Below are positions 976-41,258 of a stretch of DNA of 55,716 nucleotides, piece after piece (position 1 is the first letter of the stretch; every line of letters begins with the position of its first letter). Source of the DNA: a virus (taxonomy: Duplodnaviria; Caudoviricetes); the IMG/VR virus record IMGVR_UViG_3300025127_000047, positions 1 to 55,716 of that record. The stretch is one strand, 5' to 3'. A program made the position numbers and the translations under genes. The notes below the pieces were generated by a model that did no database searches, was not told the origin of the DNA, and worked only from the letters and a program-made list of their open reading frames with translations.

Positions 976-3909
976 ATGGCAACATATGTAAATGATTTAA
1001 GATTAAAAGAAATAGCAACTGGTGATGAGTCAGGTACTTGGGGTACTTCCACAAATACTAACTTAGAATTAATTGCAGAAGCATTTAGTTATGCAACTGA
1101 AGCTTCTTTTGGTAGTGATGCAGATGCAACAACTACTATAGCTGATGGTGCTACAGACCCAGCAAGAAGTTTATATTTTAAAGTAACTTCTGGTGCTAGT
1201 TTAACAGCAACTAGAACACTTACTATTGCACCAAATACAGTATCTAAAGTTTGGATTATAGAAAATGCAACTTCAGGTTCACAATCAATTAACATATCCC
1301 AAGGTAGTGGTGCTAATGTAACTATACCTAATGGTGATGTAAAAGTAGTTTATTCAGATGGAGCAGGTTCAGGAGCAGCAGTTGTTGATGCTTTTACTGA
1401 TATAAATTTATCAAGTGTTTCAAATATAAATGGCGTATCTATTCTTGCTGATACTACAAACTTTACTAATAGTATTTTAATAAAACAAGATACAACTACA
1501 GGTACTTTATCAAGTGCTAGTAGCAATACAGGTCTAGGTGATAGCGTATTCTTAAATCTTACTTCTGGTACTAATAACACAGGAGTTGGTACTGATGCTT
1601 TATTAGCTGTTACTACAGGTACAGAAAATACTGTAATGGGTAAAGGTGCTGGTGATGCAATCACAACTGGTGGCTATAACACAGCTGTAGGAACAGATGC
1701 ATTAGGAGCTAACACAACAGCAACTTTTAACACAGCCATAGGCAGAAATGCTTTATTAGTTAATACAACAGGTGGTTCTAATGTCGCTGTTGGTGGTCAA
1801 GCACTAGATGCTAATACAACAGCTTCAAACAACACCGCAGTTGGAACTTCTGCTTTAAGTGCGAATACCACAGGTGCAGGTAACGTGGCTGTTGGTGGTA
1901 GTGCTTTAGCAGCTAACACTACTTCTGATAACAATGTTTCAGTTGGATATGATGCTCTTGCATCTAATACTACAGGTGGACCAAATACTGCAGTTGGTAA
2001 AGGGTCTTTAAATGCAAACACAACTGGAGATAATAATACTGGTTTAGGTAGAGCAGCTTTAGGTAATAATACTACAGGCGGTAATAACACAGCAGTCGGT
2101 CATTTTGCTTTATTAACAAACACTACAGGTTCTGAATTAGTTGCTGTTGGTAAAGGTGCTTTAGATGCTAATACCACTGGTGCTAATATGGTAGCTGTTG
2201 GTAATAATGCTCTTGGTGCTAATACAACAGGTGTTCAACAAGTAGCTGTTGGTGATGGTGCATTAGCTGCAAATACTACAGGTAATTATAACCACGCTAT
2301 AGGTCAAGGTGTTTTAGATGCTACAACAACAGGAAGTAACAATACAGGTTTAGGTGCTTATGCACTTTCAGCTAATACTACAGCAGATAACAATACTGCT
2401 GTTGGTTATCACGCATTGCTTGACAATACTACAGGCACAGATAATGTGGCTATGGGTGTTTTGGCACTTGAAAATAATACGACAGGAACCAATAATGTTG
2501 GTTTGGGTAGAGAAGCTCTAGGGGCAAATACCACATCCAGTAACAATACAGCAGTTGGTTATCAGGCTTTATTAGTAAATACTGGTACTGATGGTAGAAA
2601 TAATACATCAGTAGGTACTTCATCAATGGATGCTAATACATCTGGTAAAAATAATGTAGCAGTTGGACATGATGCTTTAGGTGCCAATACCACCGCAGAT
2701 AATAATACAGCAGTAGGTAAAGATGCCTTATTAGCAAACACTACAGGAACACCAAACACAGCAGTTGGTCAAAATGCTTTAGCAGCAAATACAACAGGTG
2801 GTTCAAATATTGCTATGGGTAAAGGTGCATTAGATGCTAATACAACTGGCGGTAGTAATACAGCTATAGGTACTGATGCATTAACAGCTTGTACTACAGG
2901 CTCTAGTAACGTAGCTGTGGGTAAAGGAGCTTTAGTAACTTCAACTACACAAGGTACAAACGTAGCAGTTGGATTCCAAGCAGCACAAGATGTAGTTACA
3001 ACTGGAATTACAGCTATCGGTTATCAATCTTGCTTAAATACCACAACAGGTTACGATAATTCTTGCGTTGGTACTAATACTATGTTTTCAAATACTACAG
3101 GACATAGTAACGTAGCTGTTGGTTATCATGCTATGTATTCTAATTCTACAGGACTTTATAATATTGGTATCGGTGCTGCTGCTTTAGATGCCGCAACTAC
3201 CGCAAATAATAACGTAGCTGTCGGCTATACCGCACTTACAGACTGTACTACAGGTACAGGTAATGTTGCTATTAGTATTGCCGCACCAAATATTACTACA
3301 GGAAGCGATAATGTTGCTATAGGTTCTGAAGCTATGGAAGATGCAACAACGGCTTCTGATAATACTTGTGTAGGCAGATTAGCAGGACAAAGTTTAACTT
3401 CTGCTACTAACAACTTATTGCTTGGACACCATGCAGGTAGGTCAGATTCACCAGGAGGTAATTTTACTACACATAGTAATAGAATTAATCTTGGCGACAA
3501 CAGTATTATTGAAGCAGCAATTAAAGTTTCTTGGACAGTTACATCAGATAAAAGAGATAAAGCAGATGTTGAGCCATTAAAAATGGGATTAGATTTTGTA
3601 AATAAATTAGAACCTGTTACTTATAGATGGGATATGAGGTCAGATTATAGTCTTGATTTAGATATAACTCCTGATGGAACTCATAAAAAAGCAAAACTAC
3701 ATGGTGGTTTATTAGCACAAGATGTGGAAGAACTTGAAAGAGATTATGGGTATAAAGTAGAAAATGAAACTTCTATTGTTACAAGTAAAAATGCAGATGG
3801 TAATTATGGATTACAATATGAAAAATTTGTACCTATACTCATAAATGCAGTAAAAGAACTTTCATCACAAGTAGATGAATTAAAAGCTAAATTAAACGAA
3901 GGAGAATAA
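976..3909 (+). CDS. Tail fibre/spike with ~14-aa NTAVGxxALxxNTT repeats and C-terminal intramolecular chaperone (peptidase S74-like)
   Basis: Dozens of N(T/V)AVG..AL..NTTG repeats; TSDKRDK...L.PVTYRW...GLLAQDVE...LINAVKEL chaperone signature. Confidence 0.88.
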   Translation: MATYVNDLRLKEIATGDESGTWGTSTNTNLELIAEAFSYATEASFGSDADATTTIADGATDPARSLYFKVTSGASLTATRTLTIAPNTVSKVWIIENATSGSQSINISQGSGANVTIPNGDVKVVYSDGAGSGAAVVDAFTDINLSSVSNINGVSILADTTNFTNSILIKQDTTTGTLSSASSNTGLGDSVFLNLTSGTNNTGVGTDALLAVTTGTENTVMGKGAGDAITTGGYNTAVGTDALGANTTATFNTAIGRNALLVNTTGGSNVAVGGQALDANTTASNNTAVGTSALSANTTGAGNVAVGGSALAANTTSDNNVSVGYDALASNTTGGPNTAVGKGSLNANTTGDNNTGLGRAALGNNTTGGNNTAVGHFALLTNTTGSELVAVGKGALDANTTGANMVAVGNNALGANTTGVQQVAVGDGALAANTTGNYNHAIGQGVLDATTTGSNNTGLGAYALSANTTADNNTAVGYHALLDNTTGTDNVAMGVLALENNTTGTNNVGLGREALGANTTSSNNTAVGYQALLVNTGTDGRNNTSVGTSSMDANTSGKNNVAVGHDALGANTTADNNTAVGKDALLANTTGTPNTAVGQNALAANTTGGSNIAMGKGALDANTTGGSNTAIGTDALTACTTGSSNVAVGKGALVTSTTQGTNVAVGFQAAQDVVTTGITAIGYQSCLNTTTGYDNSCVGTNTMFSNTTGHSNVAVGYHAMYSNSTGLYNIGIGAAALDAATTANNNVAVGYTALTDCTTGTGNVAISIAAPNITTGSDNVAIGSEAMEDATTASDNTCVGRLAGQSLTSATNNLLLGHHAGRSDSPGGNFTTHSNRINLGDNSIIEAAIKVSWTVTSDKRDKADVEPLKMGLDFVNKLEPVTYRWDMRSDYSLDLDITPDGTHKKAKLHGGLLAQDVEELERDYGYKVENETSIVTSKNADGNYGLQYEKFVPILINAVKELSSQVDELKAKLNEGE

Positions 3910-3910
3910 T

Positions 3911-4198
3911 ATGGCACAAACAGTAAGCGAAGTCTTAACATCAGCTATGGATAGCGTAACATTAATAAATAATATTAATACCAATGCTTCTGCTGTAGCA
4001 GAACTTGCAGGTTTATCACAATCTGAAATTAATGATGTAGTAAGCAGAAACGTAGAACATTTAGAAACTATTTTAACTTATGCACCTGTTGATTCAGATG
4101 ACCCTAGACCTAATGTAGTAGGTTCATCTAGTAGTAAAAAAACTGATTGTACTAATGCTATTAATACAGGTAAAGCTTATATAGCAGCAAATAGTTAA
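3911..4198 (+). CDS. Tail-fibre-associated small protein
   Basis: ORF with GGAG RBS directly after the fibre gene. Confidence 0.6.
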   Translation: MAQTVSEVLTSAMDSVTLINNINTNASAVAELAGLSQSEINDVVSRNVEHLETILTYAPVDSDDPRPNVVGSSSSKKTDCTNAINTGKAYIAANS

Positions 4199-4200
4199 TC

Positions 4201-4416
4201 ATGGCAAATAAAAAAGAAACTGTTGAAATTGAATTAACACCTCAACAGCAAAACATACAGTTACACATCAATAGTTTAACTAAAAAAATATCACAACATC
4301 AGTTTGAAATTGATGAGCTTATGCCTAGTTTAAATATGTATCAAGAAGCTTTGGCAGAAAGCATGAAAGAGCAAGTTAATAATAATCCAAAGGAGGATAA
4401 AAATGACAACAATTAA
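4201..4416 (+). CDS. Small coiled-coil hypothetical protein
   Basis: ORF track; tight packing. Confidence 0.6.
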   Translation: MANKKETVEIELTPQQQNIQLHINSLTKKISQHQFEIDELMPSLNMYQEALAESMKEQVNNNPKEDKNDNN

Positions 4417-4564
4417 TGTATTAATGTGGGTAACTGCAATTATATCTATAGCTTCTGTTATAGCAGCAATAACACCAACTCCAAAAGATGACCATTGGTT
4501 TAGTTACTTGTATAAAGTAATTGACTGGTGTGCATTAAATGTACTTAAAGCAAAGGACAAATAA
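4403..4564 (+). CDS. Small membrane protein, holin-like (MTTINVLMWVTAIISIASVIAAITPTPKDD...)
   Basis: 53-aa ORF read manually; AGGAGG RBS at 4391; N-terminal hydrophobic helix followed by TPTPKDD. Confidence 0.65.
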   Translation: MTTINVLMWVTAIISIASVIAAITPTPKDDHWFSYLYKVIDWCALNVLKAKDK

Positions 4565-4740
4565 TGAGTTGGTTAGAAAAAATGTGGAGCAAAGTTACTG
4601 GAACTGAAAAAGTAAAAGTAAGAGCTAGAAATAAAAAAGGACATTATGTAGCTGATGATAAATCAACACCAAATGTAGATGAAGCTTGGACTACTAAAAG
4701 AGTAAAGAAAAAGAAAAACTTTACTGATAATAGTGGCTAA
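4564..4740 (+). CDS. Small basic hypothetical protein (RARNKKGHYVADDKSTPNVDEAW)
   Basis: 58-aa ORF read manually; TAATG coupling with the upstream gene. Confidence 0.65.
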   Translation: MSWLEKMWSKVTGTEKVKVRARNKKGHYVADDKSTPNVDEAWTTKRVKKKKNFTDNSG

Positions 4741-5113
4741 ATCTCCTGATGCGTTTGTTTATAACGCTACATTAGAACGAATTGTAGATGGAGACACATT
4801 TGATTGTTGTCTTGATTTAGGCTTTGATGTAAGGCTACATAAACAGCGTGTTAGACTTGCAGGTATTGATACACCTGAAAGTAGGACTAGAGATTTAGCA
4901 GAAAAAAAATTAGGTCTTGCTGCAAAAGAAAGACTTAAAGAACTTTGTACAGGAAAAATAAAAGTTAAATCTTTAGGCAAAGGAAAGTATGGTCGTATAT
5001 TAGGCATACCTTATACAGAAGATGGCAAAGATATTTGTAAATTATTAATTAAAGAAGGTCATGCTGTTGAATATCATGGAGGAAAAAAAGTTAAAGTTTG
5101 GGGTGATTATTAA
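4733..5113 (+). CDS. Thermonuclease (SNase-like) family nuclease
   Basis: RIVDGDT, RVRLAGIDTPE and GKYGRILG motifs. Confidence 0.9.
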   Translation: MAKSPDAFVYNATLERIVDGDTFDCCLDLGFDVRLHKQRVRLAGIDTPESRTRDLAEKKLGLAAKERLKELCTGKIKVKSLGKGKYGRILGIPYTEDGKDICKLLIKEGHAVEYHGGKKVKVWGDY

Positions 5114-5463
5114 TGGAGTCAGCCGTTACTTTAATTCAAGAAGTTGGATTTCCTATTGCAGCCGCACTTGGTCTTGGTTGGTTTATTTATAAACTTATTA
5201 TGCGTATTGTTGATGGTATGGAAACTAAATTAGATACTGTTGATGAAAAAGTAGAATCACAAATAGCAGCAATAGAAGAACGATTAGGTACAAAACTTGA
5301 TGCACAACACGGCATTTTAGTAGCATTGATAGATAGAGTTCGTAGTTTAGATAACGAAATTATAAGACAAGATACTTTAATAAAAACAATATTAGGAGTA
5401 CCTAATTTAATTGATAGTGGAAAAATAGCAAAGGCAGGTAGAGATGACCAAAGAAAAGACTAA
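5113..5463 (+). CDS. Membrane-anchored coiled-coil protein, probable first gene of the curli-like operon
   Basis: N-terminal VGFPIAAALGLGWFIY hydrophobic segment; overlaps the csgF-like gene. Confidence 0.65.
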   Translation: MESAVTLIQEVGFPIAAALGLGWFIYKLIMRIVDGMETKLDTVDEKVESQIAAIEERLGTKLDAQHGILVALIDRVRSLDNEIIRQDTLIKTILGVPNLIDSGKIAKAGRDDQRKD

Positions 5464-5926
5464 TATTTGGATATATAGAATAGCATTTGGCTTACTTGTT
5501 TTATTTGGATTGCTTATATTAACTAATCCTTTATGGGCAGACCAAATAGTACACAAGTTTAAATCTCCTAGCTTTAGTGGCATTGGAACATCAAGTCATT
5601 ACCTTACAATAGAAAATCAACAATATACTAGAAAGCTTACAATTAAAGAAGAAATAAAAGCTTTGCAAGAAGAAATAGAAAGAGAAAAAGAAAATTCAAC
5701 TCTCGCAAGATTTTTGCGTAATTTAGAGTCTAGGGTATATGCAGAATTATCAAGACAACTTGTAAATAATCTTTTTGGCGAAACACCATCTGACTCTGGA
5801 ACTATAACATTAGAAGGAAACACCATTGAATATACAAGTGATGGTGTAACATTAACATTAAAAATAACGGAAGCCGATGGAACAGTTACTGAAATTACGA
5901 TACCTATTGGTACTTTTTTGTTCTAG
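5444..5926 (+). CDS. csgF: Curli assembly protein CsgF homologue
   Basis: Signal peptide then HKFKSPSFSG (CsgF F.NP.FGG-like), F...LESR...LS..L...LFG, C-terminal TEITIP. Confidence 0.82.
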   Translation: MTKEKTNIWIYRIAFGLLVLFGLLILTNPLWADQIVHKFKSPSFSGIGTSSHYLTIENQQYTRKLTIKEEIKALQEEIEREKENSTLARFLRNLESRVYAELSRQLVNNLFGETPSDSGTITLEGNTIEYTSDGVTLTLKITEADGTVTEITIPIGTFLF

Positions 5927-6749
5927 CTGTTCTATATTTAATCAGATTGAAGATACTTATGAACATAGGTTTCAAAAACATAATGTAGTTAATATATCTG
6001 AATTACAATCACAAGAACTTGCTAATGTACCAAAACCAAAAATAAAACCAGTTGTAGCTGTATATCCTACAGCTTTTACAGACCAAACAGGTCAGCGTAA
6101 AAGTAATAGTGAGTTTGCTTTATTTAGCACAGCTATAACACAACAACCTAACGCATTACTTATACGAGCTTTAAAACACGCAGGTAATGGTGATTTTTTT
6201 ACAGTAGTTGAAAGAGTAGGTTTAGATAATTTAACAAAAGAAAGACAGTTAATAAGGTCAGCTAGAGAACAATCTGTATCAGATGAAGAAAAGAAAAAAC
6301 AATTAAGACCTTTATTATTTGCAGGAGTTTTAATCGAAGGTGCTGTTATTGCCTATGAAAGCAATCTTTCTACAGGAGGTGTTGGGGCTAGATATTTAGG
6401 TATTGGCTCTAGTATTCAATATAGAGAAGATAGCGTTACAGTAACCTTACGCATGGTATCAGTAGCCACAGGTGAAATACTTATAGAAGTAATGACTGAA
6501 AAAACTATATTTAGTTATGGTAAATCAGAAGATGTATTTCGTTTTATTGAAATGGGCACAGAGCTTGTTGAAATTGAATTGGGTAATTCAAGGAACGAGT
6601 CAACAACATTAGCACTTATGAAAGCTATAGAAAGTGCTGTGTTGGAAATAATTAATGTCGGATACGACAGGAGTTTTTGGAAATATGAAGAAAATAAAAT
6701 TAATAAGCCTGATTGTGATGATGAGTGCATTGCCAACATACGGGGCTGA
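5877..6749 (+). CDS. csgG: Curli secretion channel CsgG homologue (outer-membrane lipoprotein)
   Basis: Lipobox-like LFCSSC; VAVY..F.DQTGQRK, FSTAITQ, F.VVER.GLDNLTKERQLIR, LRMVSVATGEIL motifs. Confidence 0.92.
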   Translation: MEQLLKLRYLLVLFCSSCSIFNQIEDTYEHRFQKHNVVNISELQSQELANVPKPKIKPVVAVYPTAFTDQTGQRKSNSEFALFSTAITQQPNALLIRALKHAGNGDFFTVVERVGLDNLTKERQLIRSAREQSVSDEEKKKQLRPLLFAGVLIEGAVIAYESNLSTGGVGARYLGIGSSIQYREDSVTVTLRMVSVATGEILIEVMTEKTIFSYGKSEDVFRFIEMGTELVEIELGNSRNESTTLALMKAIESAVLEIINVGYDRSFWKYEENKINKPDCDDECIANIRG

Positions 6750-7416
6750 TAATGAAATTTATGTAGACCAATCTGGTACTGGTGCTAATATAGACCTAGA
6801 ACAACTAGGTATATCTAATATTATAGGAGGTTTAAATTCTACAGCAGGTAGTCTTAATCCTTTTGATTTAGATGGTAATAGTATGACACTAGATATTAAT
6901 ATGATTGGTGCAACTAATAAGTTTCTTGGTGATATATATGCTGATAACTTTACAGGATTTTATCAATTTACCGGTGGTACAAATTCTTTTACAATTCAAG
7001 TAGACCCTACAGATTCATACAGTTCAGATGGCTCTAATCAAAATGTAGCTGTTACTGGTAGCGGTAATACTTTTACATTAAATCAAGGAACATCAGCTAT
7101 AGCTGCATCACTAGATTTAGATTGGATAATACAAGGCTCTAATAACACAGTTACTTCAAATATAAATATTGATGGTGCAACTAACTATATGGATATAGAT
7201 GGTTCTGATAATACAGTTACTTATACAGGTACTGGAGTCAATGCATCAGCAGGTGGATATTTTTGGTTAGACCATACTGGAGGTTCAAGAACATTTAATA
7301 TTTCACAATTAAGTACCCAAGATAATGACTGGCTTAAAATCATATCCGTTTCTGGCACTTCTGCTTCTACTGTTTGCGTCATTCAAAACGACCAAGGTAC
7401 AAGCACAAGCTGCTAA
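6685..7416 (+). CDS. Secreted curlin-like (CsgA/CsgB-type) beta-repeat protein
   Basis: Signal peptide MKKIKLISLIVMMSALPTYG; NEIYVDQSG and repeated xxGxxNxhxh units; follows csgG; start moved to ATG 6685. Confidence 0.7.
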   Translation: MKKIKLISLIVMMSALPTYGADNEIYVDQSGTGANIDLEQLGISNIIGGLNSTAGSLNPFDLDGNSMTLDINMIGATNKFLGDIYADNFTGFYQFTGGTNSFTIQVDPTDSYSSDGSNQNVAVTGSGNTFTLNQGTSAIAASLDLDWIIQGSNNTVTSNINIDGATNYMDIDGSDNTVTYTGTGVNASAGGYFWLDHTGGSRTFNISQLSTQDNDWLKIISVSGTSASTVCVIQNDQGTSTSC

Positions 7417-8443
7417 TATTGGAGATATATCAGAACTTAATGGTGTAGCTCAAATAGTAAGAGATAAGCCTTATGAAGCTAATTTAAAATTTGCTATACA
7501 AAGTAATGATGAAGCTATTACTACGAATGGTAGAATGGCTATTACTTTTTTAGATGACTCTGTTGTAAAACTTACAGAACATTCACAATTATTAATTGAT
7601 GAATATATTTATGACCCAGACCCAAGTAAATCTAAAATGGCTATTACTTTTGGTTTGGGCACAGCTAGGTTTATAACTGGTAACTTAAACCGCATAGATA
7701 AACAAAACATATCTCTTAAAACACCTACAGCAAATATAGCTATTAGAGGTACAGATTTTACAGCTACAGTAGATGAATTAGGTCGTAGCCTTATAATACT
7801 TCTACCAGATGCTCTAGGGCTTTCTAGCGGTGAAATAGAAGTAGTTACTGCTATGGGTACTGTTGTATTAAATAAACCTTATGAAGCGACTACAGTAAGC
7901 GTATTTGAGTCTGCTCCAACTAAACCTGTAATATTAGATTTAACTTTAGATGTAATAGACAATATGCTTATTGTTACACCACCTAAAGAAGAAGTATTAG
8001 TAGAAGAAGAAAGTACATCAACTAAAACAGATAGTGTATTAGATTTTAATGATTTAGATATAGATTATTTAGCAGAAGATTTTTTTGCAGAAGATAATTT
8101 AGAATATACAGAACTTGATATAAATTATTTAGATGTAAATTATCTTGAAGATTTATTAAATGTTTTAGATGCTTTAGCTATTAAAGAAGATGAAGATGCT
8201 TTAGCTGAAGCTACAAGTACACAAATAACAGGAACACTATTAGGTAAAGACCCAGATACACAAATAACTACATTAATAACAGGTAATGTTATAAGTTTGC
8301 GTAGAAGTGTTAATGAGTCAGTAAGGTTAGATTTAGATGGAAGTAACGCTTATACAGTAATATTTATACAAGATGGTATATCAAATGTTGTAAAAATTAA
8401 TGGAGGAAGTGATAGCACTATTACTATTACTCAAAGTGATTGA
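7325..8443 (+). CDS. Periplasmic FecR-domain protein with acidic linker and beta-repeat C-terminus
   Basis: Signal peptide; D.I.T.NGRM.I.F.D.S.V.L.E.S.L.ID, TPTANIAIRGTDF, G.IEV FecR motifs. Confidence 0.85.
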   Translation: MTGLKSYPFLALLLLLFASFKTTKVQAQAANIGDISELNGVAQIVRDKPYEANLKFAIQSNDEAITTNGRMAITFLDDSVVKLTEHSQLLIDEYIYDPDPSKSKMAITFGLGTARFITGNLNRIDKQNISLKTPTANIAIRGTDFTATVDELGRSLIILLPDALGLSSGEIEVVTAMGTVVLNKPYEATTVSVFESAPTKPVILDLTLDVIDNMLIVTPPKEEVLVEEESTSTKTDSVLDFNDLDIDYLAEDFFAEDNLEYTELDINYLDVNYLEDLLNVLDALAIKEDEDALAEATSTQITGTLLGKDPDTQITTLITGNVISLRRSVNESVRLDLDGSNAYTVIFIQDGISNVVKINGGSDSTITITQSD

Positions 8444-10200
8444 TGAAAAAATTAATAATACCAATACTTATAATATTAAGTTTGCCTATTTTATTTCAAT
8501 CAACTCCAACAGAAATAATAAAATTAAAAACATTTGATGCTTTAATAAAAACACCAGAGCCATCAGGTAATTTTGTGATACTTAATATTACAGAAGAAGA
8601 TGTAGAACAAGAGGGTGGTTATCCATTACCAAGACAAAGACTTGCTGAAATACAAATGGAGCTTATAAGCAAAGGAGCTTTAGGTGTAGGCTGGGTTATA
8701 TCATTTCCTCAACCAGATAGAATGGGTGGAGATGAAACTTTTGCAAGGTCTTTAGGATATGCACCATCTGTAATAGCTATGTTTGAAGATAATAAAGGTA
8801 GTTATCCAAAAGCAACAGGCACAGTTATACTTGGAAAAAATAATGGTGGTATAATTAGTTTGGGAGTGAAGGAAAACCTATCAACATTATCCTCTCACAC
8901 ACTACAAGGGTTAGCCATTGCTCCCACTGATGTAGACCAGCTTGTAAGAAGAATACCTCTTTTAGTTAAAACACCTGATAATGAATGGATACCTAGTTTT
9001 GGTACACAAATATATAAAGCTTTATTTAATGTAAAAACTTACATTATAAAAACTAATGATAATGGTATATCAGAAATATCAATAAGAGGAATACCACCAG
9101 TTAAAACAGATAGTCTTGGTCGCAAGTGGATTAGTTGGATAAATACAGAACAAACCACTTTAAAAGAAATGAATGTAAATGGTAAGTTTGTATTTGTAGG
9201 TGTAACAGCTAACGGAGTAATGCCACAAATAGCAACACCAGTTGGATTATTAGAGCCACATAAAATACAAACAGCATTAGCAGAAAGTATATTAATACAA
9301 GATAGTCCTTATATACCTGACTGGGCAATAAGTATTAACTTGTTAATATTTATATTAAGTGTTGTTATTGTTTGGTTTGTATTATTTTATTTTGGCATAA
9401 CATGGGGAATAGTATTAAGTTTATTATCTATGTTTACTACAGCTAGTATAGGTTATTACTTTATACAAAAAGGTTTATTAATTGATGTTACTTGGAGTTT
9501 AATATCTCAATTTGTAACAGGAGCTATAGCTTTTTATCTTAGATTTAGAGAGCAATATAAACTTAGACAACAAATTAAAAAACAATTTGAACATTACCTT
9601 GACCCAAGACAAGTTAAACAACTTCAAGATAATCCAGAATTACTTAAATTAGGTGGAGAAAGAAAGTATTGTACTTTTCTTTTTACAGATGTAAGAGGTT
9701 TTACTAGCTTGTCAGAAAAATTAGAACCAGAAGAAGTAACAGAAATTATGAATAAAGCTTTAACCATACAAGCTAATGCTGTTAAAAAATATGGTGGTAT
9801 GGTAGATAAGTATATTGGTGATGCAATGATGGCTATATTTAATGCACCTATAAATATAGATATGCATGAAGATAGAGCTATACTTACAGCTATAGAAATA
9901 AAAAAACAAATGCAAGAAGCTAATCTTAATATTAAAATAGGTATAGGTATAAATAGTGGAGATGCTGTTATTGGAAATATGGGCTCTGAAACTAGATTTG
10001 ATTATACAGCTATAGGAGATGCAGTAAATTTAGCAGCAAGAATGGAAAGCAGTTGTAAAGAAGTAGGAGAAGATATAGTAATAGCAAAAAATACTGCAAT
10101 ACAAACAGATATAAAATTAGAAAAATTAAAACCTATTAAAGTAAAAGGAAAAGAAAAAGCAATAGAAATTTATACTATACAAGGAAACGAACATGGATAG
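8440..10200 (+). CDS. CHASE2-domain membrane-bound class III adenylyl cyclase
   Basis: N-terminal CHASE2-like region (VILNITEE...YPLPR, D.DQLVRRIPL), 3 TM helices, cyclase FTDVRGFT / DKYIGDAMMA / DYTAIGDAVNLAAR. Confidence 0.93.
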   Translation: MMKKLIIPILIILSLPILFQSTPTEIIKLKTFDALIKTPEPSGNFVILNITEEDVEQEGGYPLPRQRLAEIQMELISKGALGVGWVISFPQPDRMGGDETFARSLGYAPSVIAMFEDNKGSYPKATGTVILGKNNGGIISLGVKENLSTLSSHTLQGLAIAPTDVDQLVRRIPLLVKTPDNEWIPSFGTQIYKALFNVKTYIIKTNDNGISEISIRGIPPVKTDSLGRKWISWINTEQTTLKEMNVNGKFVFVGVTANGVMPQIATPVGLLEPHKIQTALAESILIQDSPYIPDWAISINLLIFILSVVIVWFVLFYFGITWGIVLSLLSMFTTASIGYYFIQKGLLIDVTWSLISQFVTGAIAFYLRFREQYKLRQQIKKQFEHYLDPRQVKQLQDNPELLKLGGERKYCTFLFTDVRGFTSLSEKLEPEEVTEIMNKALTIQANAVKKYGGMVDKYIGDAMMAIFNAPINIDMHEDRAILTAIEIKKQMQEANLNIKIGIGINSGDAVIGNMGSETRFDYTAIGDAVNLAARMESSCKEVGEDIVIAKNTAIQTDIKLEKLKPIKVKGKEKAIEIYTIQGNEHG

Positions 10201-10405
10201 ATTATTAACTGTAAGAGATGTAGCTGAAGATTTAGCTGTATCAAAAAAAGAAAATGAAGAAAGATGGAAAACAGCTTTTAATGAGTTTTCAGATATTAAA
10301 CAAGAAATAGGTAGTATTAATAACACAATGCGAATGGCAACCTTTGGAGTATTTGGATTTCTTGGTGCTTTAGCTATCGCAGTAGTAACGAGTATGTTGG
10401 TATAA
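10193..10405 (+). CDS. Small coiled-coil protein with C-terminal TM helix (lysis-associated?)
   Basis: Hydrophobic C-terminus; lies between the cyclase and the holin. Confidence 0.6.
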   Translation: MDRLLTVRDVAEDLAVSKKENEERWKTAFNEFSDIKQEIGSINNTMRMATFGVFGFLGALAIAVVTSMLV

Positions 10406-10407
10406 AA

Positions 10408-10887
10408 ATGAAAGGATTATTAAAAAATATAGTTGGTGCAGTAGCTCCTACACTTGGAACAGCAATAGCAGGACCAATGGGTAATATGGCTTTAGGCAAA
10501 ATAGCTGAAGTATTAGGTTGTTCAGCAGACCAAAAATCTGTGCAAAAAGCTGTACAAAATGCAACACCAGAACAAATGTTACAGTTAAAAAAAGCTGAAC
10601 AAGAGTTTGAAGTACAAATGAAAGAGCTAGATGTAGATGTTTTTAAACTTGAAGCACAAGAAAAACAACACGCAAGAAGTATGTTTAGTAAAGATTGGAC
10701 TGCTCGTATTATTGGTTTGGTAACTATAGCTGGATTTCTTGGATACATATTTTTAGTAACACTACAACCACCAGAACAAAACTCTGAAGCACTTATAAAT
10801 TTAGTGCTAGGTTATTTAGGAGGATTAGCAAGTGCAATTATTTCGTTCTATTTTGGAGCATCTAATTCCAGTAACAAAGGAGAATAA
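10408..10887 (+). CDS. Putative holin (GTA 3TM-holin-like)
   Basis: VAPTLGTAIAGP N-terminus, C-terminal TM helices ending IISFYFGAS; precedes the lysozyme. Confidence 0.7.
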   Translation: MKGLLKNIVGAVAPTLGTAIAGPMGNMALGKIAEVLGCSADQKSVQKAVQNATPEQMLQLKKAEQEFEVQMKELDVDVFKLEAQEKQHARSMFSKDWTARIIGLVTIAGFLGYIFLVTLQPPEQNSEALINLVLGYLGGLASAIISFYFGASNSSNKGE

Positions 10888-10888
10888 A

Positions 10889-11332
10889 ATGGAAACATCA
10901 CAAGAAGGATTATCTTTAATTAAAAAGTTTGAAGGTTGTAAACTTGAAGCTTATAAATGTGCTGCCGGTGTTTGGACTATAGGATATGGAAGTACTGATG
11001 GAGTAAACGAAGGTATGAAAATATCCCAAGAAAGAGCAGATATGTTATTGCTTGAAGATGTAGAAGTATTTGAAGAAGCTATAAATAAACTTGTAAAAGT
11101 AAATTTAGAACAAAATCAATTTGATGCTCTTATATCATGGACATTTAATCTTGGAGAAACTAATTTAAAAAACTCTACTTTATTAAAAGTATTAAACAAT
11201 AAAGATTATGAAGGAGTTCCTGCACAAATAAAAAGATGGAATAAAGCAGGTGGTAAAGTATTACAAGGTTTAATAAGAAGACGAGAAGCAGAAGCCTTAC
11301 TATTTGAAGGCAAAGAATGGCATGAGGTATAA
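10889..11332 (+). CDS. Endolysin, GH24 phage lysozyme
   Basis: LIKKFEGC.L.AY.C.AGVWTIGYG, QNQFDALISWTFNLG, GLIRRREAEA; start moved to ATG 10889 behind GGAG. Confidence 0.95.
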   Translation: METSQEGLSLIKKFEGCKLEAYKCAAGVWTIGYGSTDGVNEGMKISQERADMLLLEDVEVFEEAINKLVKVNLEQNQFDALISWTFNLGETNLKNSTLLKVLNNKDYEGVPAQIKRWNKAGGKVLQGLIRRREAEALLFEGKEWHEV

Positions 11333-11334
11333 CT

Positions 11335-13203
11335 ATGCCGTTTGCAAAGTTTGAATTTAAACCCGGAATAAACAAAGAAGGAACTAATTATTCTAATGAA
11401 AATGGTTGGTTTGATGCTGATAAAATTAGATTTAGAAAAGGCAGACCAGAAAAAATAGGTGGTTGGGAAAAATATACTTCTAATACTTTTATAGGAACTT
11501 GTAGAAAAATTCATGTATATAGTGATATAGAACAAACTAAATATAAAATATTAGGCACACATAAAAAACTTTATGTACTAGAAGGAGATATATATAACGA
11601 CATAACTCCTATCAGAAGTACAACATCTGCAGGAGATGTAACTTTTGCGGCAACTAATGGAAGCTCAACAATTACAGCAACCGATACTTCTCATGGTGCA
11701 GTAGCAGGAGACTTTGTTACATTTAGTGATGCTGCTACTTTAGGTGGCAATATTACAGCAGCAGTTTTAAATCAAGAATATGAAATAGTTTCTATACCTA
11801 GTTCTAATACATTTACATTTATAGCTAAAGATACAAGCGGAACTGAAGTAACTGCAAACAGTAGTGATACTGGTAATGGTGGTAGTTCTACAGTAGGTGC
11901 TTATCAAATTAATGTAGGCTTAGATGTTTTTGTATCATCAACAGGTTGGGGTGTAGATTCATGGGGTGCAGGAACATTTGGTTCATCAACAGCTTTATCT
12001 TTAACTAATCAATTAAGATTATGGACTATAGATAATTTTGGAGATGATGTTATAGCAGCACCTAGAGGTGGACCTTTATATTACTGGGACGAGTCCAGTG
12101 GTTTAGGAACAAGAGCAGTATTAGGTAGTACTAAAAGTGGTGCAAGTGATACGCCAGTAGCAATATCTCAATTATTAATGTCAGATGTTGACCGCCATGT
12201 TATAGCTTTAGGTTGTAATCCAATAGGCTCATCTACGATTGACCCATTATTAGTTAGATTTTCAGATGCAGAAAATGCAGTAGATTGGACACCGACAGCA
12301 ACAAATTCTGCTGGTGGCGTAAGGTTATCTACAGGTAGTTTAATTGTAGGTGGTTTACAAACAAGACAAGAAATACTTATATGGACAGATGTGGGCGTAG
12401 TTTCTATGCGTTTTGTTGGACAACCTTTTATATTTAGTTTTAATGAAGTAGCAACAGGTATGTCTTTAATATCTCCAAATGCTGCAGCTACTGCAGGTGG
12501 AGTAGTTTACTTTATGGACGATGGAGCTTTTTATCAATATGCAGGTTCTGTTCAAAAATTACCATGTACAGTATTAGATTATATATTTAGTGATTTTAAT
12601 AAAGGACAAGCTTATAAAATTTTTGCAGCACCTAATCCTAAATACAATGAAGTAATTTGGTTTTATCCTAGTGCTAGTTCAACAGAAATAGATAGATATG
12701 TAACTTATAATTATTTAGAAAATAGTTGGAGTATAGGAACAACTAATGATGGTTTTGTTAGAACAGCATGGAATCCAGCATATAGTTTAGATTACCCAAT
12801 AGCTGCTAGTAAAAATGATGACTCTGGTTTAAATTATTTATATAACCAAGAGTTTGGTTGTTTAGCAGATGGAAATGGATTTACTGCTTTTATAGAATCA
12901 TCTGATTTTGACTTAGACCCAGCAGGAGAAAAGTTTATGTTTATGTCTAAGTTAATACCAGATTTAGAATTTAGAAAATCATCTGATACAGGTAACACAG
13001 TAGATTTTATAATTAAAGGTAGAGATTATCCTTTACAAGATTTATCTACATTATCCACAACATCTGTTACACCTAGTTCTACTTTTGCAAATATTAGAGG
13101 TAGAAGCAGACAAAGTGCAATAAGAGTTAGCAATACTAATGGTGATTTTGGTTGGCGATTAGGTGATATAAGATTAGAATTAAGACAAGATGGTAAAAGA
13201 TAA
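11335..13203 (+). CDS. Tail stabilisation/nozzle protein (P22 gp10 / tail tubular B-like)
   Basis: 622 aa, beta-rich; podovirus position ahead of the ejection genes; C-terminal WRLGDIRLELRQDGKR. Confidence 0.65.
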   Translation: MPFAKFEFKPGINKEGTNYSNENGWFDADKIRFRKGRPEKIGGWEKYTSNTFIGTCRKIHVYSDIEQTKYKILGTHKKLYVLEGDIYNDITPIRSTTSAGDVTFAATNGSSTITATDTSHGAVAGDFVTFSDAATLGGNITAAVLNQEYEIVSIPSSNTFTFIAKDTSGTEVTANSSDTGNGGSSTVGAYQINVGLDVFVSSTGWGVDSWGAGTFGSSTALSLTNQLRLWTIDNFGDDVIAAPRGGPLYYWDESSGLGTRAVLGSTKSGASDTPVAISQLLMSDVDRHVIALGCNPIGSSTIDPLLVRFSDAENAVDWTPTATNSAGGVRLSTGSLIVGGLQTRQEILIWTDVGVVSMRFVGQPFIFSFNEVATGMSLISPNAAATAGGVVYFMDDGAFYQYAGSVQKLPCTVLDYIFSDFNKGQAYKIFAAPNPKYNEVIWFYPSASSTEIDRYVTYNYLENSWSIGTTNDGFVRTAWNPAYSLDYPIAASKNDDSGLNYLYNQEFGCLADGNGFTAFIESSDFDLDPAGEKFMFMSKLIPDLEFRKSSDTGNTVDFIIKGRDYPLQDLSTLSTTSVTPSSTFANIRGRSRQSAIRVSNTNGDFGWRLGDIRLELRQDGKR

Positions 13204-13406
13204 TGGCAGATAAAAGTGCAGTTCCATTACCGATAGCAACTCTTGAATATAATGAGTTAAATGAATCTATAACTAGAAGAACAATAGAACAAACTTTTCA
13301 AGATATAAATTCAGATATAGGTAATGCTAAAAGAAAACAAGATAGTGTAAGTAGTAAAGCTATGCGAAGGCATCAGTTTTTGTTAATGGGAGCAGGTAAT
13401 GGCTGA
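13203..13406 (+). CDS. Small virion-module protein
   Basis: TAATG coupling; context. Confidence 0.55.
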   Translation: MADKSAVPLPIATLEYNELNESITRRTIEQTFQDINSDIGNAKRKQDSVSSKAMRRHQFLLMGAGNG

Positions 13407-13737
13407 TAGTTTAAAAGTACTAGGACAAGTTGACCCAGCAGCTACTACCACTACAGTTCTTTATACAGTACCAGATAAAACCCAAACAACAGTTAGTTCT
13501 ATAGTAGCTGCAAATAGAACAGGCTCTGCAATAACATTTAGATTAAGTGTTCATGTAGGCGGAGCAAGTGCAGATGATAAACAATATCTTTATTATGATA
13601 AATCTGTAGCAGCAAATGACACTTTAACCATTGTAATAGGTATAACACTAGACCAAACAGATGTTATAAAAGTTTATACCAGTGCAGTAGATATGAGTTT
13701 TAATATATTTGGTTGTGAAACAACCGAGGAAAGATAA
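13399..13737 (+). CDS. Small beta-rich virion protein
   Basis: LYTVP...T.VSSIVAAN pattern; context. Confidence 0.6.
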   Translation: MADSLKVLGQVDPAATTTTVLYTVPDKTQTTVSSIVAANRTGSAITFRLSVHVGGASADDKQYLYYDKSVAANDTLTIVIGITLDQTDVIKVYTSAVDMSFNIFGCETTEER

Positions 13738-18012: not shown

Positions 18013-19290
18013 ATGAATATAATAGAACTAGAAGATAACATTAAAGGCTTACCAGATAATAGTTTACAAAATGAAATGGTTAATCCTACTGGTATGTTTC
18101 CACAATACTTAGTTATGTCTGAATTGCAACGCAGACAAGAAATGCGTAAAGACTATCAAGGTCGTATGGCAGCTGAAGAAAAAACTCCTCCGCTTCCATC
18201 TATTCGTGAACAAATGATGGCAGGTATAACTCAACAACAACCAATAATGCAGGATAGCGGCATAGCAGGACTACTACCAGCTCAACCGCAAGGAGCACCA
18301 ATACCACCAACTATGTCCGCTAGTCCTGATGTAATGCCTATGTATGCTGGTGGAGTTGTGCGTATGAATACAGGTACACAAATACCTGATTTGTATGGTT
18401 TAACCACTGAAGAATTAAAATTAGCTGGTTTATATGATGACCCAAATACAGAAGAAGATGAAAGAATAACAAGTTATGAACAAGACATAATAGATTATTA
18501 TAAAACTTTACAAGAAGAACAACCTAAAAAAATAGCAGAAGAAAAAAGATTTGGAGAAGGTTTAAATTTAATGAAGGCAGGTCTTGCATTAGGTACTGCT
18601 GGTACATTTAAAGAGTTAAGTTCAGGATTAGAAAAAACTATAGATAGTATAGATGCAAGTAATAAAGCTATTTCTAAAAAAGAAGATGATTTGAAAAAAT
18701 CTAAATTAGAAAAAGCAAAAGCTATGGCTTCAATAGAAGCTAAAAGAACAGATAGATTAGCAGATTTATCTAAATTAAAAACTGAAAAACAAGCTAAACA
18801 AGCTTTGGCTGATTATTATAAATCTATGGACCCTAAAACTAAACTTAGTGGTCCGGGACAAATAGCTAAAGAAATATTAGATGGTGTATATGGACCACCA
18901 GAAAGTTTAAATATTTATAGAACAACAGATGCAGAAGGAAATGAACTTCCTAAACCAATTATTGATTCTAATAAATTATTAGAATTAGCAGCATCTAAAG
19001 TACCATCAATAGCTTCAGCAGATATTAGAACACTAGGTAGTAAACAAGAAGAACTAGCTAAATTAGTAACAGACCAAATGAGTAAATTTTCAACAATTCA
19101 AGAAGTAATTAATCTTGCAAAAGAAGAAAATATTAGTGAACAAGATGCATACGATAGAATTAAAATGAAAAAAGAACTTGAATTAAGAAAACAATTAGGT
19201 TTAGGTTCAGGAGCAGGTATGTATTCTGGTGGTGTTGTAGGTAAATCTTCTCAAAGTTTTAATGATGTGGTAAAAACCATCAATGCCTAA
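18013..19290 (+). CDS. Internal virion/ejection protein
   Basis: Helical charged protein lying between ejection genes; MYAGGVV and MYSGGVV motifs. Confidence 0.6.
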   Translation: MNIIELEDNIKGLPDNSLQNEMVNPTGMFPQYLVMSELQRRQEMRKDYQGRMAAEEKTPPLPSIREQMMAGITQQQPIMQDSGIAGLLPAQPQGAPIPPTMSASPDVMPMYAGGVVRMNTGTQIPDLYGLTTEELKLAGLYDDPNTEEDERITSYEQDIIDYYKTLQEEQPKKIAEEKRFGEGLNLMKAGLALGTAGTFKELSSGLEKTIDSIDASNKAISKKEDDLKKSKLEKAKAMASIEAKRTDRLADLSKLKTEKQAKQALADYYKSMDPKTKLSGPGQIAKEILDGVYGPPESLNIYRTTDAEGNELPKPIIDSNKLLELAASKVPSIASADIRTLGSKQEELAKLVTDQMSKFSTIQEVINLAKEENISEQDAYDRIKMKKELELRKQLGLGSGAGMYSGGVVGKSSQSFNDVVKTINA

Positions 19291-22200
19291 GTTTGTTCAA
19301 ACACCTGATGGAATAACACACCAGTTACCTGACAGTGTAACTGACGAAAACTATTTAGAAGAAAAAGAAAGATTTTTAGCTAACTATAATAAACCCCAAC
19401 TCCAAGAAGATTTCACTTCACAACCCCAACCCCAACCTCAATCTGAAATATCTACAGACTTACCCGGTCCTGCATTAATTGGTGCAAGTCTTTTAAGTAA
19501 TCTTGAAAAAAATGATGGAAGATTTTTTGATAGAAGAAATTATACTGAAGAAGATTTAGATAGAAGTGGTTTGTTATTACAAACAAGAGGTTCTTTTTCA
19601 AAATTATTTAGTGAGCAAGATGCTACTTACAATAGATTTAAAATATTAGAACAAATAGCAGAGTTAGAAAATGAAAGATTACAAATTTTATCTAAAGATG
19701 TTTTAACTGAAAAAGATAAAACTAGATTAGTTGAAATAGATAGATTAATAAATGAGGGAGAAGCACCAAATATTTCTGTAGAAGAAGCAGAAAAACAATC
19801 TATAAAAGAAGTTACAGATGCTATACCTTATATTCCTAATCCTGCTTTAATGGGCGACCCATCAGTTTATCAAGCAACTACTCTTAATCTTGCAGAAATA
19901 GAAAGAAATAAAAAACTTGGATTAAAAGATACATTAGCATACGAAACAGATAGAAGGGATAAATCTATAGAATTTCAATCAGGTATAAGATACTCTAAAA
20001 GTTTTGAAGACTTAGCTAGTGCTTCATCTTTTGATGAATCTATGGAAATATTTTTATCTGACCCATTAAGTTTAATGGGACAAGTGTTAGCTTCAAGTTC
20101 AGCACCAATGTCTGTATCTTTAACTTCTGGTGTTGTTGGAACTCTTTATGGGGGTCCAATAGTAGGTGCAGCAGCAACAGGTATTGCTTCTGGTTCAGTT
20201 GATGCAGTTTATTCTTTTACAGAATATATGCAAAAACAAGGTGTTGATATATACAATAATGATGATGTTGTAAAATTTTTACAAGACCCAGAAAAAGTAG
20301 CAGCTGCTAAAAAGTATGCAAGAACAAGAGCAACATTTATAGGTGCTTTTGATGCATTATCTTTTGGCTTAGGCTCTAAAATAATAGCACCTGCTAGAAT
20401 TGGTGGTGCTCATAGTAGAGCATTATTTAATTCATTAGTAGTTCAACCGCCATTACAAGGAACATTAGGTGGAGCAGGAGAATACTTTGCACAATTAAGT
20501 ACTTTAGAAGAAGGAGAGCAAATACGAGTTGGTGAAGTGTTTATGGAAGCTATAGGTGAATTAGCTTTTGCTCCTGTAGAAACAACACTAGCACAAGCAG
20601 GTACAGGATTTGCAGAATATAAAAGAATACAACAAGAAGCAATTCAAGAACAAAGAAAAAGATTTAAAAATTTTGAAACAAATTATGCAAACCTTACCCC
20701 AGAACAACAAAAAGCTATAGATGAAAAAGGTGCAGAAGTTTTTGAAAGAATACAAAATAATAATCCAGATAAATCTATAGAAGAAATTTTAGATTTAACA
20801 TATCAAGAATTACAAACAACCTTTGAAGCTTTTGAAGCTCGAAAAATTATTCAAGAAAATCCACTTGAAGATATTGCATACAATAAACTTGGAACAAGAA
20901 ATGAAGTTGTTTTTAAAGCAAATGAAGACGGAACTTTTAGTGTAGTAATTATAGATGAAAGACAGCCTAATAATTTAAAAATTCTTGGTACTTATAATGA
21001 AAAAGAAAAAGCAGCAAAAACTACTAGAGATTTAAACCATCAAATTAATACTTATGTAAATAGACAAACATTTCAAGAAGATGCAGTAATGCAAAACTTA
21101 AATCTTGATAATGAATTTGTAGAAGATTTTGCAAATGAAATATTAAATACTACTCTTGATGGTATATCTTTTGTAGATTTAGAAAGATTAGGGGTTGCTC
21201 CAGAAACTATAGCTCTTTTAAAAGACATAGCACAAAACGATTACACTGTACCGCCAAGTGTATTAAAAGCAAATTTATCTAAAAAACAATTTGATAAAGT
21301 AATGCAATCAAAAGCAGAAACTTTAAATGCTAAACCTAAAAAATCTATAGCAGGTACAGCTTTTAATACTTTATTAAAAAATAAAAATATTGAAAGTGAT
21401 ATTAATTCAGATAGTTTTAAAAGATTTGGATTGCATTTTGTTGGAGAACAAGATGTAAACAAAATGAGTGTAGCTCAAAAAAGAGTATTGTTTACTTTAT
21501 TAGATAACATACCAGCTTCTCCAGATAAAATAAATTTACCAGATTTTACTCCTAGAACTTTTAGTGTTGATGATTACAACAAAGCAAAAACAGAAATAGA
21601 AAATCAAGGTAAAGCTACATTAAAAATAATACAAGATGCAACAGGATTAAATAAAGTATCTGCAAAAAGAATAATGGAGTACTTTGTTACTGCTGGTTAT
21701 GTTAATAAAAAAGGTAACAAGTTTGAATTTGTTGGAACAGAAAATCAAATTTATAACTTAGATGGTACTCGTAGATTAACTTCAGATATAAATTTAAACA
21801 AAAGAATAAAGCGTATTGAAAAAATACTTGTTAATAATAATAAAATAAATCCAAATGTTCGTTCAAAAATAGCAACTTTTTTAGATGAACTTACAGACCC
21901 TAATATTAGAACAATAGCAGGTGGTAGTTATAATGCTACATTTAATGAAATACTTTATACAATAGATAGAGCAGACTTAAATTTATTAGATAAAAAATCA
22001 GACCAATATAATCCAAAAGAATTTTTAGCTACATATGCTAGATTACAAGGACACGAAAACTTTCATGCATTAGTAGAAGCAGGATTATTTACACAAGAAG
22101 AAATAAATGCACTTACAAAATTTGCAACTAATAAAAAAATAAGTAAAAAATATCAAGAAGCATTACAAAGAAAATTAAAAACAGAAGAAAAATATTCTGA

Positions 22201-29485: not shown

Positions 29486-29638
29486 TCAATCATTATCTTT
29501 ATTTTTTTTAGATACTATTTCGTAATGATTAACTAAATCTTTTTCATATTTTTCTTTAAACATTTTTTTTAATTCAGGATATGTTTTATCTATTACATTT
29601 TCTTCAGTATAAATAACAGCTTTAATTGTGTTGCTCAT
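29486..29638 (-). CDS. Small hypothetical protein
   Basis: Probable start ATG 29638 (MSNTIK). Confidence 0.45.
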   Translation of the reverse strand: MSNTIKAVIYTEENVIDKTYPELKKMFKEKYEKDLVNHYEIVSKKNKDND

Positions 29639-31522: not shown

Positions 31523-31527
31523 AAATA

Positions 31528-40206: not shown

Positions 40207-40248
40207 AAGTTCTCCTTAAATATTAATTGGTTAATAGATAAGGGGCTG

Positions 40249-41250: not shown

Positions 41251-41258
41251 ATTTACTC

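Follow-up and report, generated by a model that had tools for sequence, protein, structure and literature searches.

Positions 5113–10200 of IMGVR_UViG_3300025127_000047, a 55,716-base virus record analysed here over its whole length (the window), carry six overlapping genes encoding a small membrane protein, homologues of CsgF and CsgG, a curlin-like protein, a FecR-domain protein and a class III cyclase with a CHASE2 sensor domain. We favor the reading that this cassette is a captured bacterial envelope operon, in which a CsgG/CsgF channel built late in infection would probably export a CsgA-like subunit while the FecR/CHASE2-cyclase pair turns a periplasmic cue into cyclic AMP (cAMP). The cassette is neither a phage invention nor new, as it has been published and a further copy lies in a bacterial chromosome. 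Wittmers et al. 2022 (PMC9599517; this and the other articles are cited for the passages drawn on here) describe it in pelagimyophages as well as in nine podophage genomes of the HTVC023P type, in the order ‘histidine kinase’ (sometimes two), CsgF, CsgG, CsgA/B-like protein, FecR, often a second fiber gene, and adenylate cyclase, and found every part of it at each of the 65 GOV2.0 stations. The copy in phage Melnitz was described by Buchholz et al. 2022 (PMC9004378), who propose that the pore regulates lysis timing, so that both the cassette and a lysis-timing hypothesis are already in print. To these accounts we add the CHASE2 architecture of the cyclase, the lack of a kinase, a bacterial operon, stand-alone FecR/CHASE2 pairs, an adjacency to lysis genes that is specific to one phage clade, and the absence of a visible cAMP receptor.

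Judged by its portal protein, which is 41–42% identical to those of HTVC023P, HTVC027P and 023Pt_psg01, the window belongs to a podophage of the HTVC023P type, whose genome it covers nearly completely (completeness estimate 96%). Its other genes include a terminase, a primase-helicase, a tail fiber bearing an S74 chaperone domain, and a protein of 2,949 amino acids (aa). The cassette lies in a plus-strand block of open reading frames (ORFs) at 203–28132, between the tail fiber gene and a gene for a 622-aa protein; homologues of the latter in related phages carry the annotation stabilization, constituent or tail protein. Six DNA sequencing runs from marine or seawater metagenomes hold at least half of the sampled words of the window, and the same search listed no RNA run as a holder.

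The ORF coordinates agree with the sequence-only reading of this DNA, made before any database search, which had placed six co-directional genes here with overlaps of 20, 50, 65, 92 and 4 nucleotides (nt) (Table 1). The third overlap is 95 nt when the whole ORF is counted and 65 nt from Met 6685, where the curlin-like gene opens with the signal-peptide-like MKKIKLISLIVMM. Relatives of the cyclase begin at an ATG equivalent to position 8443, which would reduce its overlap with the FecR gene to 1 nt (TGATG), and by this comparison that ATG is a more likely start than the TTG at 8440. When Pfam scores were compared as bits against the curated cut-offs, the names that had been given to the CsgF, CsgG, FecR, CHASE2, cyclase and lysozyme genes were borne out, whereas the curlin and holin labels stayed below their cut-offs.

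The secretion part of the cassette is the most readily recognized by homology. The second gene product matches Pfam CsgF (58.6 vs 25.8 bits, E 9.4e-16, profile positions 2–132 of 132) and phrog_35372 (8.4e-45), and after an N-terminal hydrophobic, signal-like segment its mature end starts with DQIVHKFKSPSFSG; phmmer found no match for it among PDB sequences. The third matches Pfam CsgG (175.2 vs 20.8 bits, E 1.4e-51), aligns over residues 46–275 to Escherichia coli CsgG (4uv2, E 6.9e-49), is 52% identical to the CsgG of HTVC008M and 40% to that of Melnitz, and has an N-terminus, LLVLFCSSCS, that looks like a lipoprotein signal. By these matches it is a homologue of CsgG, the lipoprotein pore through which type VIII secretion crosses the outer membrane. 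CsgF lies upstream of CsgG in every IMG/VR locus whose contig extends that far. No match to CsgE (PF10627) or CsgC (PF10610) was found in the window at E ≤ 0.1 with a positive E. coli control, in agreement with the sequence-only reading, which had recognized neither; no family search was made for CsgD. CsgE is likewise missing from the cassette described in PMC9599517, and the alphaproteobacterial and viral systems published there also lack both CsgE and CsgC.

The curlin-like protein is rich in threonine, glycine, serine, asparagine and aspartate and begins with a curlin-type repeat, QSGTGANIDLEQ. Three of its 16 relatives match Curlin_rpt at E ≤ 0.01 (best 1.2e-7). An AlphaFold2 (AF2) model built from a 16-row alignment is an all-beta stack of 18 strands, with a mean predicted local distance difference test score (pLDDT) of 77.7 and a predicted template-modelling score (pTM) of 0.75, and its best structural match among 48,161 chains is CsgA of Pontibacter korlensis (8c50, Z 18.4, 202 aligned residues, 18% identity). 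Foldseek gave no match of the model to the PDB at E ≤ 0.001. ‘Curlin-like secreted solenoid’ seems a fair name for this protein, which is a candidate member of the curlin family, and its secreted, CsgA-type appearance would suit export as a fiber equally well as display on the cell surface.

The signaling part begins with the FecR protein, which matches Pfam FecR (38.2 vs 24 bits, E 2e-9) and phrog_37870 (5.3e-70) and consists of a signal-like N-terminal helix, a FecR beta domain at ~31–191, an acidic disordered linker at ~215–295 and a C-terminal beta domain at ~300–370. The AF2 model (pLDDT 71.9) is confident for the N-terminal and the small C-terminal beta domains and disordered over the ~80-residue linker. 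Foldseek matched the modelled N-terminal domain to 4m0h, a periplasmic domain from a putative anti-sigma factor (E 5.7e-5), and to 6ovk, the cell-surface signaling domain of PupR (E 3.1e-3). In fold it resembles the periplasmic part of FecR-type regulators, which contacts outer-membrane proteins. We considered a FecR-type anti-sigma factor and rejected it, as there is no anti-sigma domain and the FecR domain begins ~30 residues in, after the single signal-like helix; Pfam showed no domain besides FecR, and no membrane anchor was found past the N-terminal helix. A TonB-dependent transducer or ECF sigma factor was not seen either, though no search was aimed at them. More than 6,800 relatives of this protein were found in the protein collection at E ≤ 0.001, and because the best 120 were all at least 84% identical, homologues for a diverse alignment were taken from the loci.

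In the last cassette gene, an N-terminal transmembrane segment, a periplasmic CHASE2 domain at ~22–295 and a class III cyclase domain at ~405–581 follow one another, with matches to Pfam CHASE2 (91.3 vs 26.3 bits, E 9.7e-26, residues 13–306) and Guanylate_cyc (76.8 vs 21.9 bits, E 2e-21) and with hydrophobic stretches at 1–27 and in a block at 291–342 and beyond, flanking CHASE2. By a term count, the word CHASE2 has 0 occurrences in PMC9599517. The protein aligns to the Pseudomonas aeruginosa adenylyl cyclase CyaB (3r5g, 1.2e-29), and in a comparison of 23 viral and bacterial homologues D417, K457, D461 and R534 do not vary, while conservation of N530 is 90% or higher; in class III cyclases these positions are the metal-binding aspartate pair, the lysine of substrate binding and base selection, and the transition-state asparagine and arginine. 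A lysine stands where the guanylyl cyclase Cya2 (2w01) has a glutamate, and the second specificity position is a threonine, as in CyaB. The cyclase thus keeps, by alignment, the residues of an adenylyl cyclase, and cAMP is its probable product. A complex prediction for CHASE2 22–296 and FecR 28–222 scored 0.00 in both runs; no controls were folded with it, and we conclude nothing from it.

Two scans of IMG/VR, one with the window CsgG (200 relatives, best 80 loci kept, the podophage-type set) and one with the HTVC008M FecR (305 relatives, 80 loci kept, the myophage-type set), were scored for cassette order by tblastn of the window proteins. The families lay in the same order and on the same strand in 80/80 loci of each type. 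The sequence-only reading had named failure to co-occur across related phages as an outcome that would speak against it, and the order was kept in all 160 loci, which leads us to regard the cassette as a unit; the arrangement is far beyond chance. All six families were present in 61/80 podophage-type and 28/80 myophage-type loci, the incomplete ones being cut by contig ends or having a divergent curlin-like gene without a tblastn match, as in 14 of 73 myophage loci. No internal cassette gene was missing from the podophage-type set. The spacing of the last two genes is more variable. They overlap in the window, with no gene between them; a gap of 0.4–2.5 kb separates them in some podophage loci (L049–L052, L055–L057, L059, L068, L069 and L071) and in all myophage loci, reaching 6.3 kb in L152, and the gap of HTVC008M and Melnitz holds an extra gene, annotated in the Melnitz copy as a curlin-repeat protein.

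Counterparts outside phages were sought by a FecR-alignment scan of one genome per species. It confirmed 510 relatives, from which 80 loci were retained and scored with the six family profiles. Most or all of the cassette was present in 8/80. Two of these, in metagenome-assembled genomes (MAGs) of Caulobacteraceae (L163, 7082–13100; L164, 7101–13100), carry a contiguous CsgF-CsgG-curlin-curlin-FecR-CHASE2 cyclase series without the small membrane gene, with proteins ~35–38% identical to those of the window and with a full-length FecR, C-terminal domain included. The L164 operon is flanked by genes for methylmalonyl-CoA mutase, acyl-CoA dehydrogenase, an amidohydrolase, TetR, TauD and a phosphoesterase, and its G+C content of 0.516 is similar to the 0.546 and 0.563 of its flanks; this operon is chromosomal. 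The Caulobacteraceae cyclase has a C-terminal extension of ~80 aa that is common to Campylobacterota and to some phage-like copies and is lost in the clade of the window. The small membrane gene is present in L165, L166, L167, L168 and L170; the flanks of L170 have strong PHROG matches and are phage-like, two flanking ORFs of L168 gave no match, and tblastn of 43 other window proteins against MAG loci L163–L170 gave none. PMC9599517 states that FecR and the cyclase do not occur within bacterial T8SS (type VIII secretion system) operons, a statement to which the Caulobacteraceae operon adds one qualification; the trees published there indicate an alphaproteobacterial origin and transfer between phage families.

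The signaling genes also occur by themselves. FecR lies directly before a CHASE2 cyclase, without CsgG or CsgF, in Sulfurovum (L222, 9956–12808), Sulfurimonas (L223, 5246–8299), two further Campylobacterota MAGs (L227, 1202–4042; L231, 4154–6712) and a betaproteobacterial MAG (L232, 3867–5434). The FecR proteins of these pairs are 232–347 aa long, and those of 232–315 aa match the N-terminal FecR part of the profile only (positions ~9–179). A Burkholderia LysM-FecR protein that adjoins a CHASE2 histidine kinase has been reported (PMC5192318), and together with our five CsgG-less loci this agrees with the earlier statement that FecR beside CHASE2 is recurrent in bacteria. We conclude that FecR and CHASE2 form a signaling pair in its own right, which these phages and one bacterial lineage combine with a set of type VIII secretion genes.

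In place of the published ‘histidine kinase’, the window has a 116-aa protein with a short N-terminal tail, a single hydrophobic segment (~11–33), a conserved helix (LVALIDRVRSLDNEIIR) and a charged C-terminal tail in a hydropathy scan. We rejected the kinase label for this protein, which has no HisKA/DHp or HATPase_c match in Pfam at E ≤ 0.1 and yields only coiled-coil matches below threshold. It matches phrog_18771 at 2.9e-16, and this family of unknown function takes 52/52 scanned relatives, 5 of which also match the holin family phrog_4898 (best 2.2e-5). A 17-member profile found 940 cluster representatives at E ≤ 0.001, the best 150 of them 64–209 aa long, and among 50,697 phage records the protein was found only in HTVC008M and Melnitz, both cassette-bearing phages (6/6 records). 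An ESM Atlas search returned viral ‘hypothetical protein’ clusters only; its leads to Holin_BhlA and Mu releasin were below 0.9 and were not used. A profile search found the protein in 0/2 bacterial operon-bearing genomes while recovering 4/4 positive controls, and its presence in the phage cassettes together with this absence marks it as a phage-specific addition.

We therefore favor, with a confidence somewhat better than even, the following course of events. CsgF, CsgG, the curlin-like protein, FecR and the CHASE2 cyclase would have been taken up as a five-gene block from a bacterial envelope operon, and the small membrane protein, in a single copy or in two, would be an addition made by phages. 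An infected cell would, at a late stage, build a CsgG/CsgF channel in its outer membrane, through which the curlin-like beta-solenoid subunit would be exported. In the same envelope, soluble FecR would pair with CHASE2 as a periplasmic sensor, and the cyclase would convert a periplasmic cue, probably related to secretion, to cytoplasmic cAMP.

In this reading, export of the subunit, contact between FecR and CHASE2, the making of cAMP and any effect on infection are predictions. Several observations weigh against it. The window curlin-like protein itself scores 13.5 bits for Curlin_rpt against a cut-off of 20.7 (E 0.073), and the match of its model to CsgA 8c50 has a root-mean-square deviation of 8.9 Å, with general solenoids (SufBD-type and others) near it at Z 16.5–14.6. 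A full-length orthologue of the operon FecR was found in 1/401 sampled genomes of the class, which was the query genome, and there was a single partial match besides; with a bacterial counterpart this rare, transfer between bacteria and phages may have run either way. The host of the phage is presumed from kinship with cultured pelagiphages, and we took the presumed host order from a MAG titled Candidatus Pelagibacter that holds cassette contig L166. Among 81 sampled genomes and MAGs of this order a class III cyclase domain occurs in 0/81 and a cNMP_binding domain in 8/81, which leaves no receptor for the predicted cAMP in view; CsgG occurs in 1/81, the MAG holding L166. Within the phage no cNMP_binding domain was found, and Pfam showed no obvious cyclic-nucleotide receptor in 29 other window ORFs. 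The sequence-only reading had offered host CRP-dependent metabolism as one target of the cAMP, a proposal that these counts weaken: in the sampled genomes the presumed host lacks the usual cAMP machinery, which speaks against a CRP-type target.

The last point on this side concerns lysis. Among loci reaching at least 2.5 kb past the cyclase, 33/39 from podophages have a lysozyme homologue in the 3 kb after it, an adjacency with which a functional link to lysis in that clade is compatible; the count for myophages is 0/20. In the window, the ATG at 10193 of a 70-aa gene overlaps the cyclase stop by 8 nt and is followed by genes for a putative holin and an endolysin. The 159-aa putative holin stays below the cut-off for GTA_holin_3TM (17.6 vs 24.8 bits, E 0.0058), matches holin phrog_3427 at 0.0065 and phrog_1544, of unknown function, at 1.4e-25, and has a homologue preceding the lysozyme in 4 of the 33 lysozyme-bearing podophage loci. 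Six podophage loci (L061, L063, L070, L072, L074 and L075) have no lysozyme homologue past the cyclase and reach the 622-aa gene after 0.7–3 kb; there a different lysin, or none, takes its place. Myophage cassettes lie between a single-stranded-DNA-binding gene and baseplate or tape-measure genes. HTVC023P and 023Pt_psg01 are without the cassette, and the slot upstream of their 622-aa homologue holds 2OG-Fe(II) oxygenases, ferrochelatase and endonuclease V. An SNase-family nuclease gene and a 53-aa membrane gene (4733–5113, plus strand) stand upstream of the cassette in the window and between cyclase and lysozyme in L037, L049, L057, L058, L066–L069, L073 and L079–L081, from which it follows that either the cassette or those genes moved within the slot. 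ORFs abut or overlap throughout 3911–13203, and a consensus scan of 3500–13500 found fewer promoter-like sites than shuffled sequence (31 vs 50.6) and terminator-like sites at chance level (4 vs 3.8), so that the cassette is not set apart from the long late-gene block. The earlier description of the cassette as fused to the lysis genes thus holds for the podophage clade and fails for the myophages, for the related phages with other auxiliary genes in the slot, and for want of a promoter or terminator boundary. We read the adjacency as probably a matter of placement in the variable auxiliary-gene slot of this lineage and not as a fixed functional fusion.

Among the alternatives, the one that survives best is the proposal in PMC9599517 that curli-type fibers on infected cells cause aggregation (‘sibling capture’) or shield against superinfection, with FecR and the cyclase regulating fiber production only. 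CsgG, CsgF and a CsgA-like solenoid that has a signal peptide are all there and conserved, which suits this proposal, as do the Curlin_rpt matches among the relatives of the solenoid, and we nevertheless think it rather unlikely, given that Melnitz infections showed no clumping of infected cells in cytograms or transmission electron microscopy (PMC9004378) and that we see neither a cAMP receptor nor, with the limit on the CsgD search given above, a regulator of the CsgD type. The CsgD point is softened by the fact that a phage late operon needs no transcriptional regulator of that type.

The sequence-only reading itself had the solenoid displayed through CsgG as a sensor of superinfecting phage or cell contact, signaling through FecR to the CHASE2 cyclase, with cAMP setting lysis timing or CRP-dependent metabolism; its idea on lysis has a precedent in the proposal made for Melnitz. 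We consider this sensor improbable. The recurrence of FecR/CHASE2 pairs in bacteria fits it, and so does the modelled FecR fold, which is that of regulators that receive signals from outer-membrane proteins. In Sinorhizobium meliloti, a CyaD1 construct without CHASE2 makes cAMP constitutively (PMC5498481) and signal transduction requires an outer-membrane-associated protein (PMC7529298). The podophage lysozyme adjacency and the weak holin-family matches among relatives of the small membrane protein could also be counted in its favor. Opposed to these are the 20 evaluable myophage loci, none of which has a lysozyme near the cassette, the L164 operon, which has no lysis genes, and the scarcity of cNMP_binding and class III cyclase domains in the presumed host together with the lack of the former in the phage; moreover, display of the subunit, as opposed to its release, is a supposition.

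We also entertained, as a long shot, an envelope-spanning second-messenger circuit private to the phage, in which the target of cAMP, or of a different cyclic nucleotide, would be non-canonical or made by the phage and would serve lysis timing or a superinfection block; the candidate target would be the small, weakly holin-like membrane protein, which only phage cassettes carry. If this were true, the phage would bring a complete receptor-cyclase pathway to hosts whose sampled genomes show no class III cyclase and in most cases no protein that binds cNMP, and the state of the CsgG channel or of the curlin-like fiber would decide when lysis occurs or keep superinfecting phage out. Least probable of all is that the CsgG channel, with or without CsgF, is itself a lysis or permeability device akin to a pinholin or gated pore and gated by the remaining genes, as proposed for Melnitz (PMC9004378): the window has no CsgE gate that we could find and its cassette adjoins the putative holin and lysozyme, as in its podophage clade, but CsgG sits in the outer membrane and cannot depolarize the inner one, the five genes stand in a bacterial chromosome without lysis genes, and myophage cassettes lie away from theirs.

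Phages of SAR11 and OM43 are among the most abundant marine viruses. The cassette takes up ~9% of this phage genome (5,088 of 55,716 bases), and this share, together with its abundance (200 and 305 IMG/VR relatives, more than 6,800 FecR relatives), implies that it must pay its way. Three published guesses at its role disagree. The bacterial operon and the phage-only membrane protein, the stand-alone FecR/CHASE2 pair and the gap in the cAMP machinery of the presumed host narrow the functional question to a testable form, refinements that sharpen it without settling the role of the cassette during infection.

Elsewhere in the window (Table 1), the 2,949-aa protein at the end of the structural block is possibly an internal virion protein that is ejected. 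A trio of adjoining minus-strand genes for a MoxR-type ATPase, a weakly matching DUF3150 protein and a DUF2201 protein presumably resembles the CobS/CobT-like pairs that have been reported as pelagiphage auxiliary genes, and a Sak-type annealing protein with an adjoining nuclease looks, from its family matches, like a phage recombination pair.

Table 1. Features of the window, beginning with the six cassette genes and the lysis genes that follow them.
Feature	Coordinates	Strand	Basis
Small membrane protein, 116 aa	5113–5463	+	ORF list, hydropathy
CsgF homologue, 160 aa	5444–5926	+	Pfam CsgF, phrog_35372
CsgG homologue, 290 aa	5877–6749	+	Pfam CsgG, 4uv2 alignment
Curlin-like protein, 243 aa from Met 6685 (ORF 253 aa from 6655)	6685–7416	+	Model, relatives
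FecR-domain protein, 372 aa	7325–8443	+	Pfam FecR, phrog_37870
CHASE2 class III cyclase, 586 aa from TTG 8440	8440–10200	+	Pfam CHASE2, Guanylate_cyc
70-aa protein, possibly part of the lysis set	10193–10405	+	C-terminal hydrophobic segment 46–70; family matches below threshold only
Putative holin, 159 aa	10408–10887	+	Hydrophobic segments 98–150
Endolysin, 166 aa	10832–11332	+	Phage_lysozyme 171.9 vs 22.3 bits, E 9.1e-51; phrog_7 endolysin 3.8e-66
Tail-fiber-like protein, 977 aa	976–3909	+	Short ‘NTT’/‘NTA’ repeats dominate; C-terminal Peptidase_S74 857–920, E 5.5e-10
2,949-aa protein	19283–28132	+	Zeta_toxin-type P-loop kinase 1765–1919, E 6.7e-11; LPD38 ‘large polyvalent protein’ 2643–2817, E 2.6e-31
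Three adjoining genes	38129–41319	−	MoxR-type AAA_5 ATPase 40249–41319; weak DUF3150 39325–40206; DUF2201 metallopeptidase/VWA 38129–39325
Sak-type single-strand annealing protein and adjoining PD-(D/E)XK nuclease	30640–32409	−	Sak-type match E 2.3e-27
DUF968/HNH-like gene	29622–30029		

Compared with known systems, the cassette of the window is closest to the viral T8SS cassette of PMC9599517, with the same families, order and phage lineage and with CsgE lacking in both, and differs from it in having one small membrane gene, no second curlin gene and lysis genes directly after. The T4-like myophages HTVC008M and Melnitz, which infect Pelagibacter and Methylophilales, respectively, have all six families in the same order and on one strand, but their proteins are 29–52% identical to those of the window, they carry the extra gene between FecR and cyclase, and they have no lysozyme nearby. 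The Caulobacteraceae operon shares five of the six families in order and differs in its two curlin-like genes and the missing small membrane gene. E. coli csgBAC/csgDEFG has in common with the window the CsgG channel, CsgF and a secreted repeat subunit, whereas the window has no match to CsgE or CsgC, a subunit only weakly curlin-like by sequence, and FecR and a cyclase within the operon. FecR/PupR regulators share the periplasmic FecR fold, to which the window protein adds neither an anti-sigma domain nor a later membrane anchor. Bacterial FecR and CHASE2 sensor pairs lack CsgG and CsgF and often have a kinase as the output domain, but just as in the window, they place a secreted FecR protein directly upstream of a membrane CHASE2 sensor.

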